Virus record (IMG/VR): IMGVR_UViG_3300025575_000008
Location: 1 to 39,783 of that record
DNA: 39,783 bases
Direction: 5' to 3' (one strand)
Source: a virus
Lineage: Duplodnaviria > Caudoviricetes
Shown here: positions 2,676 through 19,130 of the stretch, piece by piece
Position numbering within the stretch: position 1 is the stretch's first letter
Layout: each line of letters starts with the position of its first letter
The notes under the pieces: model-generated
Database searches by the model: none
Told to the model about the DNA's origin: nothing
What the model saw: the letters and a program-made list of their open reading frames with translations, nothing else
Program-made: the position numbers and the translations under genes

Positions 2676-2714
2676 AAAAAGCTACTTCCTTAATTGGAGG
2701 TAGCTTTTTTTTTT
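2676..2714. terminator. Bidirectional rho-independent terminator
   Basis: AAAAAGCTACTTCC-TTAATT-GGAGGTAGCTTTTTTTTTT; lies between the lysis genes and the convergent minus-strand unit. Confidence 0.85.
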
Positions 2715-2825
2715 AATGTTTTTTAATGTTTTTTTAACTTGTTTTCTGCAATTTCTATAATTATCCCAATACGTCCACATTAAATGCCATGCCATCTTAT
2801 GAACTTTCTTTTGATACTTATTCAT
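2682..2825 (-). CDS. Small basic hypothetical protein (47 aa) downstream of tRNA-like RNA 1
   Basis: RBS AGGAGG; MNKYQKKVHKMAWHLMWTYWDNYRNCRKQVKKTLKNIKKKSYLQLRK. Confidence 0.55.
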   Translation of the reverse strand: MNKYQKKVHKMAWHLMWTYWDNYRNCRKQVKKTLKNIKKKSYLQLRK

Positions 2826-2856
2826 TTTCATCCCTCCTGTTATAGTAGATTTAAAT

Positions 2857-2918
2857 TGGTGGAGCGTTCGGGAATCGAACCCGACCCTTCGTTATGCATA
2901 CCACTACACCAACGCCCC
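2857..2918 (-). ncRNA. tRNA-like RNA 1: 62 nt, no anticodon arm, alanine identity (G3:U70, A73)
   Basis: GGGGCGT-TG-GTGT AGTGGTAT GCAT-AACGAAGGG-TCGGG TTCGATT CCCGA-ACGCTCC-A-CCA: 7-bp acceptor stem, D arm, T arm, encoded CCA. Confidence 0.8.
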
Positions 2919-2981: not shown

Positions 2982-3107
2982 TTAATTTCCCTCAATATCT
3001 TCACACTTGCCATCATCATCTACTGTGATGCAAGCCAAAGTACATTCACCATCATCGTTGTTTATGCAATTTACTGCATTACACAAAATCTATTTTCTTC
3101 CGTCCAT
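2982..3107 (-). pseudogene. DUF1540-like Cys-rich microprotein interrupted by an in-frame TAG at codon 6
   Basis: RBS AGGAGG; MDGRK*ILCNAVNCINNDDGECTLACITVDDDGKCEDIEGN; TAG at 3090-3092. Confidence 0.6.
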
Positions 3108-3137
3108 TTTATTCCTCCTATTATAGTAGATTAAAAT

Positions 3138-3217
3138 TGGGGGTTGTAGAGGAATTGAACCTCCGACCATTCCTATCGAATTGTACACTCCAAATAGTAT
3201 AGACACCATGCGAACCC
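3138..3217 (-). ncRNA. tRNA-like RNA 2: 80 nt, degenerate cloverleaf ending in CCA
   Basis: 5' GGGTTCG pairs with 3' CAACCC (one bulge) followed by CCA; T arm GGAGG-TTCAATT-CCTCT; non-canonical D-like (ATGGTG/TACTAT) and anticodon-like (TTGGA/TTCGA) arms. Confidence 0.65.
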
Positions 3218-3386
3218 ATATAAATCTACTTCTAAAGGCAAGTCAGTAGTTGTTCTTTTAACCCAAATTATGTAGTTTGTTTTGGTAAATCAATAAGTGT
3301 CACATGGTTGTACCCTCCTTATTAGTTTCAATCCTTGTTTTTATGGATGTTATACTGGGGCACTACTCGTTTGTTACTACTCTTTT

Positions 3387-3415
3387 ATTGTATTCTTAAT
3401 AAATTGCTTTGTCAA
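3387..3415 (-). promoter_or_regulatory. Sigma-A promoter driving the tRNA-like operon
   Basis: Minus strand TTGACA(3415-3410)-17 bp-TACAAT(3392-3387). Confidence 0.8.
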
Positions 3416-4199: not shown

Positions 4200-4228
4200 T
4201 TGACAAAATATTCTGTTTAAATTATAAT
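4200..4228 (+). promoter_or_regulatory. Perfect consensus sigma-A promoter firing into a non-coding region
   Basis: TTGACA(4200-4205)-17 bp-TATAAT(4223-4228). Confidence 0.85.
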
Positions 4229-4615: not shown

Positions 4616-4636
4616 TTTATAAACTTTTATTCAAAC

Positions 4637-4714
4637 TGTGGATAATGTGGATAATGTGGATAACTCATGCCATTATCCTAATAAATGGGTTGAAACTGTG
4701 GATAATGTGGACAA
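4637..4714 (-). promoter_or_regulatory. DnaA-box cluster, putative plasmid-state origin
   Basis: TGTGGATAA (reverse complement TTATCCACA) at 4637, 4646, 4655 and 4697, plus TGTGGACAA at 4706; AT-rich tract at about 4575-4635. Confidence 0.85.
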
Positions 4715-4715
4715 C

Positions 4716-4997
4716 TTATTCTTTTATTATCTCAAAAGCAGTTTGTAGAAATTTCTCCAAATATTCACTAACTCCAACACCTTTTTTCATTGATCTCCTT
4801 TTTATAATTGCAATTGTTTCTATTTTTAATCTGTAAGTCATTGGCTTTGTGGTATTTTCATTATCTTCAAAATTTAAATCAATCTTATTTACACTTTTGT
4901 TTACAATTTTGTTTACAGAAGGAGTTACAGTTACAGAATCAGTTACAGGTTCAACATCTTCAAAGAAATCTGTTTTCTTTAACATTTTCTTATCCAT
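4716..4997 (-). CDS. Small partition partner (type Ib centromere-binding, RHH-like)
   Basis: Overlaps the parA stop; low-complexity N-terminus, C-terminal TKPMTYRLKIETIAII...GVSEYLEKFL. Confidence 0.7.
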   Translation of the reverse strand: MDKKMLKKTDFFEDVEPVTDSVTVTPSVNKIVNKSVNKIDLNFEDNENTTKPMTYRLKIETIAIIKRRSMKKGVGVSEYLEKFLQTAFEIIKE

Positions 4998-5748
4998 TAA
5001 TAATCTCCTTTGCTAGTCTTCTATAGGCTTGTACAGCTTCATTCTCAGGGTATAAGAATATTGCAGGTATACCGTGGCTGGGGGCTTCTGCAAACCTTAT
5101 AGAACGGTTAATAGTTGTATCGAATACTTTTATACCACTTCCGTAAAAATGCTTTCTAGCATCCTGCAATACGATTGTAGATAGGTTAGTTCTTACATCA
5201 AACATAGTCGGTAGTATACCTAATATATTAAGATCTTTATTGTATTTTCCCCTAACCTTTTCTATCGTAATTAGTATTTCATTAACTCCTTTTGTTGCCA
5301 GGTACTCACATTGTAAAGGAATAATTACATCAGTAGAAGCTGCTAGGGCGTTTATAGTAATCAGATTCTTTGCTGGTGGCGTGTCTATTATAATGTAATC
5401 ATAATCATCTAAAACGCTAGATATTACGTTTTTAAGCACATGCCCAGGATTCTTAAAAGTGTCTCTGTTTTCTACTATTAGCATATCCAGTTCGTTCAGT
5501 GTCTCATTTGACGGAATTACGTCACAATATTCAGTCCTGATAACAGTATGGTCAAAATCCTTTTCGCCTGTGATAATATCGTAAATAGTACTCTTAGGTG
5601 CTGTTACACCTAAACTTGTACTTGCGTTTCCCTGGGGATCGAAATCTAATAATAGTATATTCCCGGGTAAAGCTACTGCAAGGTTTACAGCTGTTGTTGT
5701 TTTTCCTACTCCGCCTTTGGGGATTGCAATTGCAATTATTCTTGCCAT
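4990..5748 (-). CDS. parA: ParA/Soj family partition ATPase
   Basis: Deviant Walker A KGGVGKTT, DFDPQGN, IIIDTPP, ILPTMFDVRT. Confidence 0.97.
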   Translation of the reverse strand: MARIIAIAIPKGGVGKTTTAVNLAVALPGNILLLDFDPQGNASTSLGVTAPKSTIYDIITGEKDFDHTVIRTEYCDVIPSNETLNELDMLIVENRDTFKNPGHVLKNVISSVLDDYDYIIIDTPPAKNLITINALAASTDVIIPLQCEYLATKGVNEILITIEKVRGKYNKDLNILGILPTMFDVRTNLSTIVLQDARKHFYGSGIKVFDTTINRSIRFAEAPSHGIPAIFLYPENEAVQAYRRLAKEIING

Positions 5749-19099: not shown

Positions 19100-19130
19100 A
19101 TAAGTATCTTAATAAGGAGGTATTTATATT

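Follow-up and report, generated by a model that had tools for sequence, protein, structure and literature searches.

The nearest precedent for the RNA described here is the TLD-only (CDS-less) tmRNA of phage DS6A, together with the tmRNAs of about 65 bp in Mallomonadaceae plastids, for which titration of a host protein has been proposed or shown; the TLD-only phage RNA is reported to inhibit tmRNA (PMC4131195, PMC11915505). Like it, the 62-nt RNA of the present locus (hereafter mini-tRNA) is phage-encoded and short, has no anticodon, and combines an Ala-type acceptor with a T arm and CCA. In contrast to the TLD-only tmRNA as described in those reports, it has a tRNA D stem, lacks the D-loop motif, helix 2 and the GAC connector, and belongs to a class in which most members are without G3·U70. 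Ordinary phage tRNA genes (RF00005) share its acceptor, D and T arms and CCA but possess the anticodon arm that it lacks. YrlA and other bacterial Y RNAs, according to PMC4201824, also mimic the D arm, T arm and acceptor without decoding, and occur in phages. However, YrlA adjoins Ro60 and carries a Ro-binding module, whereas the mini-tRNA has neither and forms its acceptor from its own ends; no Ro60 (TROVE) Pfam match was present in the 46 of 102 ORFs scanned, nor any Y RNA family match in Rfam.

The t-elements of plant mitochondria (PMC1920247) share with the mini-tRNA a tRNA-like fold directly before a coding region and a possible role as RNase P substrate. Indeed, the fold adjoins a putative mRNA end, with a Shine-Dalgarno site 18 nt and a start codon 25 nt downstream of the CCA. 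Compared with the t-elements of that report, the mini-tRNA comes from a bacterial virus, encodes CCA, has a cleavage that is a prediction, and belongs to a class with no general link to a downstream ribosome-binding site. Solitary CRISPR repeats (SRUs) behind promoters are described as RNA anti-CRISPRs (Racr) lying near acr genes (PMC10651486), and viral crRNA-like RNAs have also been reported (bioRxiv 10.1101/2024.10.29.618823). Here the likeness to these systems belongs to a neighbouring repeat (3361-3325) and not to the mini-tRNA; as opposed to the described SRUs, this candidate shares a predicted transcript with tRNA-like units. No description of D-arm-retaining armless phage tRNA genes was found in full-text searches of the literature, although supplements may list such genes.

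The 62-nt element and its surroundings

The window (the whole stretch of 39,783 nt that was analysed) is a circular 39.7-kb assembly with a 127-nt terminal repeat. Its initial annotation described, with the strand unstated, a 62-nt RNA with a 7-bp acceptor, G3:U70, A73 and CCA, a perfect T arm, and 9 nt in place of the anticodon arm and variable loop. This RNA is the reverse complement of 2857-2918, that is, it lies on the minus strand, and sequence and fold bear out each of these points. All seven acceptor pairs form, including G1-C72, G2-C71 and G3·U70, and are followed by A73 and the encoded CCA; all five T-arm pairs form as well. The acceptor, discriminator, CCA and T arm are those of a canonical tRNA (RF00005), whereas the anticodon stem with its 7-nt loop is missing, and 9 unpaired nt separate the D and T arms. 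The mini-tRNA cannot decode. The D arm, which had been called normal, does have a 4-bp stem, but a soft one, with two G·U pairs out of four and pair probabilities of 0.49-0.62. Tertiary contacts are given here in standard tRNA numbering and with the usual tertiary pairs: U8, A14, G18 and G19 are present, U21 replaces A21, and position 48 is G, which makes the 15:48 pair G·G. In the fold an 8/4 acceptor/T register competes with the 7/5 register, and U49-A65 has a probability of 0.18.

A descriptor of acceptor, T arm and CCA with a short middle found one match in the window and none in 300 dinucleotide shuffles; the folding energy alone is not better than that of shuffles (z -0.95). As had been expected, standard tools respond weakly: ARAGORN at default settings reported 0 tRNA genes and no tmRNA at the mini-tRNA, RF00005 at its cut-off misses it in the window, and Rfam returned only a local tmRNA match (RF00023) of 22.7 bits, against a cut-off of 47, confined to the 62 nt. 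The element is covered by contigs (not raw reads) from three DNA runs with zero differences or gaps, it being taken into account that all three are 2016 peat samples, maybe of one campaign, and that the present DNA may itself stem from two of them. Since these contigs agree over the element, loss of the anticodon arm is unlikely to be a one-off assembly slip.

The mini-tRNA lies in a minus-strand cassette bounded by the lysis genes and a divergent promoter region, with the following features in transcriptional order.

3387..3415, minus strand: sigma-70-type promoter consensus (11/12), pointing into the cassette; a consensus match only
3325..3361, minus strand: single CRISPR repeat by Rfam RF01320, an SRU that may be an RNA anti-CRISPR or a crRNA-like RNA
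3300..3319, minus strand: Shine-Dalgarno site and start-stop minigene (ATG TGA) directly behind the CRISPR repeat, from the sequence
3139..3216, minus strand: degenerate tRNA-like unit of about 78 nt, 5' end approximate, from T-arm scan and fold
3107..3143, minus strand: copy 2 of a 37-nt trailer, after the degenerate tRNA-like unit (direct repeat D1)
2982..3107, minus strand: DUF1540-like Cys-rich ORF of 41 codons with an in-frame TAG at codon 6 (3092-3090), by PF07561
2857..2918, minus strand: anticodon-armless tRNA of 62 nt, from sequence and fold; absent in 300/300 shuffles
2826..2862, minus strand: copy 1 of the 37-nt trailer, after the mini-tRNA CCA (direct repeat D1)
2682..2831, minus strand: 49-aa basic ORF directly behind the mini-tRNA, a singleton in sequence searches
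2676..2709, strand unassigned: hairpin of 14 bp with a T run on either strand, a likely bidirectional terminator, from fold and terminator scan

Promoter-like sites are not in excess in the window (9 in total, compared with 10.8 in shuffles). The solitary repeat is the sole RF01320 match in the window (41.4 bits, cut-off 37), and its core matches true CRISPR arrays in 2 of 401 Bacillota genomes. It shows the marks of an SRU/Racr, being single and intergenic and preceded by a promoter consensus, and no cas gene turned up. After the repeat comes a spacer-like stretch (3300-3324, minus strand), itself made up of the Shine-Dalgarno site and ATG-TGA; this is a candidate Racr or crRNA-like regulator, with its first 11 nt present again at 19110, where another ribosome-binding site lies.

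The degenerate unit has an intact T arm, a partial acceptor of 5 bp and a CCA-like end, without a 7-nt anticodon loop; on the armless model its T arm alone scores (14.2 bits). The leader of this unit (region 3139-3230, minus strand, for unit and leader together) is complementary both to its own trailer and to the CCA and trailer of the mini-tRNA (17 nt, 88%). Pairing between the first leader and the last trailer (inverted repeat I1) suggested a 360-nt tmRNA-like RNA running from 3216 to 2857, which is ruled out: the ends form no acceptor stem, and ARAGORN and Rfam show no tmRNA. The two trailer copies are 86% identical, each with a Shine-Dalgarno site, and their core motif was found twice, against 0.03 expected.

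The part of the DUF1540-like ORF after the TAG matches PF07561 (E 5e-05), and contigs of two runs carry the same letters at that codon. This ORF has a strong ribosome-binding site and may be a pseudogene, be read through, or restart at the next codons; recoding of TAG is unlikely, as TAG terminates 4 of 17 long ORFs. Together with the degenerate second unit, the in-frame stop is a sign of decay in the cassette. The 49-aa ORF has no Pfam or PHROG family and no informative Atlas match, and among 5.8 billion proteins only its own record was found. The hairpin at 2676-2709 is likely to close the cassette against the lysis genes, as modelled from its fold.

The genome is likely a phage-plasmid, judging from its genes. 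This reading is based on the presence of the partition and replication genes ParA and Rep-like (69-794), a repressor and an antirepressor, and on the absence of an integrase among the 46 of 102 listed ORFs scanned; terminase, portal and capsid genes were also found in that set. The ParA gene is located as follows.

4990..5748, minus strand: ParA, by Pfam/PHROG

That the mini-tRNA is an attP remnant is rejected, since it has both tRNA halves and the ORFs scanned include no integrase. The host is likely a Bacillota species, because the capsid is 53% identical to those of Bacillus phages Pony and Page and one ParA relative (51%) is labelled Desulfosporosinus. Elsewhere in this region, two perfect (12/12) promoter consensus sites converge at 4200-4228 (plus strand) and 4344-4316 (minus strand), and short direct repeats near 4635-4715 (region 4620-4715), downstream of parA, may be a partition or origin site.

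Armless tRNAs in other phages and the alanine identity

No close homologue of the mini-tRNA was found in IMG/VR, about half of a metagenome set, INPHARED or 79 ParA-related loci. A scan for its own D-arm type gave 96 loci without an armless tRNA. The metagenome scan (about half of the collection, 120 loci) gave four descriptor matches, one of them with CCA and none a close relative; many of its other loci resemble eukaryotic tRNA-derived repeats. Relatives of the amidase (1 locus) and of ParA (79 loci), 48% identical at best, held no armless tRNA and one weak 21.7-bit match. Of 301 Bacillota genomes, 7 gave matches to the 3' end of the mini-tRNA, and in 6 of these 7 the closest gene is tRNA-Ala(GGC) (89% over 27 nt), with both-sided differences at pairs 6:67, 7:66 and 49:65. 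The D arm of the mini-tRNA is unlike that of the tRNA-Ala genes found, yet is paired. We infer that the mini-tRNA descends from a tRNA, tRNA-Ala being the closest host match.

The armless shape, on the other hand, is a recurrent phage class. It was censused by pattern scans that required a D loop near a T loop and CCA and left position 3:70 and C48 free, after which one descriptor (acceptor, D arm, 5-14-nt linker, T arm and CCA, 57-68 nt) was applied over all loci, with 109 matches, 95 of them distinct. The class comprises, the window excluded, 39 viral armless tRNAs that differ in sequence and are 57-68 nt long, in about 26 lineages by our own grouping. Linkers of 8-9 nt are commonest (24/39), and G15:C48 is present in all members but one (38/39). 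The mini-tRNA matches the class descriptor and scores 49.2 bits on model R1, which was built including it, and deviates from the class pattern at A21 and 15:48. In an alignment of 35 members, pairing reaches 98.4% and two-sided changes number 173, compared with 46 in shuffles, a score biased by the fact that members were picked for pairing and descend from real tRNAs.

In a Microbacterium prophage family that includes a complete chromosome (L432), eight variants carry the armless form at one site, and among them pairs 1:72, 51:63 and 52:62 have changed on both sides. The upstream gene was present in 7 of 401 genomes, four with the armless form, one with a 70-nt form and two as weak matches without the unit; the 70-nt form, at an orthologous site (L490), has a 5-nt loop and a damaged acceptor. 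A complete Pantoea plasmid, which from its gene names we take to be P1-like, carries a 64-nt armless form (checked in one of the six records covering the region), while two enterobacterial P1-like relatives are without it. A conserved, unannotated non-coding stretch of about 130 nt lies downstream of the armless site in P1-like plasmids (L485:5900-6600, L486:2980-3130, L487:1488-1616) and persists even where the armless tRNA is missing. One phage family (L462, L468, L471, L473, L474) combines a 1:72 mismatch with linkers of 8, 9, 13 and 14 nt and presents the loss of the anticodon arm in graded steps. Thus, of the homologues with compensatory changes that the initial annotation had called for, close relatives of this copy were not found, but the armless shape recurs and compensatory changes occur in one family; likewise, the selection it had proposed holds for the armless shape in other phages, and for this copy no homologue was found.

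Several class members sit in tRNA clusters or typical tRNA positions. One cluster with an armless G3·U70 unit holds further irregular CCA-ended tRNA-like units (L129:1-260 and 600-660). The class has no conserved neighbouring gene in common, and in most lineages the ORFs listed include no recognisable anti-defence neighbour; Tad2-like anti-defence genes lie near the armless unit in two other lineages (8 neighbour proteins scanned against Pfam). A scan of viral sequences with AGTGGTA (at least 122 loci) gave two other armless types among the 85 distinct matches listed. The other matches look like 3' exons behind group I introns, confirmed by Rfam in 2 of 15 loci tested, or like ordinary long-arm tRNAs. 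In GTDB loci (L376-L461), 34 of 51 distinct armless matches proved to be ordinary tRNAs whose anticodon arm is interrupted by Ns from scaffold gaps, and were dropped; the 17 without N were left out of the class except for the Microbacterium ones. A Pseudomonas PAK_P3 small RNA was dropped as a class member, since that family proved to be Pantoea plasmids.

The mini-tRNA carries the complete bacterial AlaRS identity set (G3·U70, A73, G2-C71, G1-C72). AlaRS acts on minihelices under known identity rules (PMC9976931), from which it follows that the mini-tRNA should be chargeable with alanine. The initial annotation was right about this identity, but that alanine is the point of the RNA is not upheld. 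G3·U70 occurs in 5 of 39 armless tRNAs and in 6 of 56 ordinary viral tRNAs of the same D-arm pattern (Fisher p 0.50), or by lineage in 4-5 of 26 armless (p 0.24-0.39), and the 3:70 pair of the eight Microbacterium variants is A-U in seven and G·U in one. G3·U70 is not a mark of the armless class, and the mini-tRNA is probably alanylated by inheritance, alanine seemingly not being its purpose. An Ala-type armless subclass does exist: a scan covering Ala identity alone, without D-arm sequence, gave 18 loci, namely 13 armless Ala-type units, two TLD-like units and three ordinary tRNAs (full-length tRNA-Ala in L585 and L589, tRNA-Tyr in L580). In L576, L582 and L584, at 2501-2558, high-GC viral contigs carry 58-nt Ala-type units with a tetraloop hairpin replacing the D arm, a two-sided change at 7:66 and a position just before an ORF.

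Decoy, processing handle or relic

Our preferred explanation, which we hold tentatively, is that the mini-tRNA is a processed, non-decoding tRNA decoy within an anti-defence RNA cassette. Of the ideas in the initial annotation, this is the one that appears to survive best. A tRNA gene would have lost its anticodon arm and been kept as a non-decoding look-alike, transcribed together with the solitary CRISPR repeat, and likely excised by RNase P and 3' trimming. The free mini-tRNA would then serve as bait for host proteins that hold on to the acceptor stem, the T arm and the CCA end; the most plausible target would be a defence effector or toxin directed at tRNA ends. Such proteins are suggested as targets because the parts kept by the class are the parts they read. 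According to PMC12851939, Cas12a3 binds the T arm, acceptor and CCA and still cuts after loop removal, and its authors call viral resistance to it unknown. Several observations argue for a decoy: the top half and elbow are intact while the anticodon arm is gone; the promoter consensus, solitary repeat, two tRNA-like units and terminator stand in one cassette; the shape recurs in many phage lineages with free acceptor sequence; and both bases of three pairs are changed relative to the nearest host tRNA-Ala found. Against it stand the absence of a homologue of this copy in the databases searched, its off-class A21 and 15:48, the decay of the cassette, the lack of a neighbouring gene kept throughout the class, and eight other phage loci in which an Ala-type armless unit interrupts the anticodon of a tRNA-Lys and is better explained by a processing role. 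A role as a T-box effector is ruled out, as this requires anticodon-Specifier pairing (PMC4695836).

Such a processing role is possible for the mini-tRNA too, though we consider it rather less probable. As a cis-acting, t-element-like handle, each unit would be cut at its 5' side by RNase P; this would divide the transcript and give the message of the small downstream ORF a structured 5' cap, as t-elements are described to do in plant mitochondria (PMC1920247). The same 37-nt Shine-Dalgarno trailer behind both tRNA-like units is consistent with this, as is the predicted pairing of leader and trailer around the second unit (inverted repeat I6; fold). The eight viral loci just mentioned point the same way: there a 61-nt armless unit separates anticodon positions 35 and 36 of tRNA-Lys, and an RNA ligase is present in 5 of 5 tested. 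However, 5 of 25 armless lineages and 19 of 87 stand-alone ordinary tRNAs have an ORF with a Shine-Dalgarno site within the next 40 nt, which is no enrichment. Moreover, encoded CCA suppresses RNase Z in B. subtilis as reported in PMC7479834, so that a clean 3' cut freeing the mRNA is not expected and a free CCA-ended RNA is favoured over an RNase Z signal.

In the nested loci themselves (L574, L575, L577, L578, L581, L583, L588 and L590, element at 2501-2561 in each), the 61-nt Ala-type armless tRNA lies within tRNA-Lys(UUU), the flanks form a normal tRNA-Lys of 75-77 nt, and there are five distinct host-tRNA sequences. The ligases of the five records tested are four of Rnl1 type and one PF09414. 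The nested unit is a candidate tRNA-shaped intron that would be removed by tRNA-processing enzymes.

Somewhat doubtful as well is a further alternative, that the mini-tRNA is a decaying pseudogene of a phage tRNA (likely Ala) from which a deletion removed the anticodon arm, not yet eroded and without a selected role. This copy is a singleton, has the non-canonical A21 and 15:48, and stands beside a degenerate twin and a broken DUF1540 ORF. Deletion intermediates do exist, as in the 70-nt L490 form and the 8-, 9-, 13- and 14-nt linkers of L462, L468, L471, L473 and L474, and two P1-like relatives are without the unit. However, the mini-tRNA keeps all 16 pairs and the CCA while the adjoining twin has eroded, its D arm pairs although it is unlike those of the tRNA-Ala genes found, and in other families the armless form persists with two-sided changes. 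It must be taken into account that the decoy, handle and pseudogene readings are not mutually exclusive.

The likeness to tmRNA's tRNA-like domain noted initially holds for the 3' end and fails elsewhere. SmpB is described as binding the stemless D loop of tmRNA (PMC3968760), whereas the mini-tRNA has a D stem, leaves a gap opposite the D-loop consensus of RF00023, and has neither the GAC connector nor helix 2. Its identity as a tmRNA domain is ruled out by the tRNA D stem and the missing D-loop consensus and GAC connector; moreover, there is no tag reading frame or full tmRNA, as ARAGORN reports none and the Rfam match stays within the 62 nt. For the same reasons, the proposed titration of SmpB is unlikely. 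It is improbable that the mini-tRNA is an alanylated tmRNA-domain mimic blocking ribosome rescue as the DS6A TLD-only RNA is reported to do, even with that published precedent (PMC4131195, PMC11915505), with G3·U70, A73, CCA and a 3' end that fits the tmRNA model, with 13 of the 18 loci of the Ala-specific scan being armless Ala-type units, and with one class member (L123) 0.8 kb from a phage tmRNA. Apart from the D stem, G3·U70 is not enriched in the armless class, and the mini-tRNA fails to align to the D-loop consensus and GAC connector, both of which the L579 unit carries. This unit (L579:2501-2582, also in L591, minus strand) is an 82-nt TLD-only tmRNA-like unit of the DS6A type on a 43-kb viral contig; its D-loop and GAC marks come from direct reading, Rfam confirming the 3' end alone.

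Fem/MurM and alanyl-phosphatidylglycerol synthase are non-ribosomal users of alanine. That the mini-tRNA is a dedicated alanine donor for these or a similar enzyme is very improbable: it has the full identity set, and AlaRS works on minihelices (PMC9976931), but no such transferase was among the 46 of 102 listed ORFs scanned and acceptor identity is free across the armless class.

Returning to the decoy, a broader reading is unlikely as a whole but may be worth stating. Armless tRNA genes would be a widespread, unannotated phage RNA counter-defence, sacrificial top halves that soak up effectors attacking the acceptor or CCA, such as Cas12a3, and the present cassette would pair one of them with an RNA anti-CRISPR, so that one transcript would act against immunity by RNA alone. 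If so, the effectors soaked up would be those that variant tRNAs of phages are unable to evade.

The TLD-only tmRNA of phage DS6A was already known from the reports cited above; new here are a census blind to acceptor identity, carriers that are in culture, and the association with a solitary repeat. Standard tRNA finders miss armless tRNA genes, and armless matches in genome databases are a trap, two thirds of them being scaffold-gap artefacts. The census also warns against inferring function from G3·U70 alone. As the class occurs in cultured hosts (Microbacterium prophages and Pantoea P1-like plasmids), expression, charging and function are directly testable. If they are decoys, armless tRNAs would answer how phages resist defences that cut the universal CCA tail of tRNA, as described in PMC12851939.
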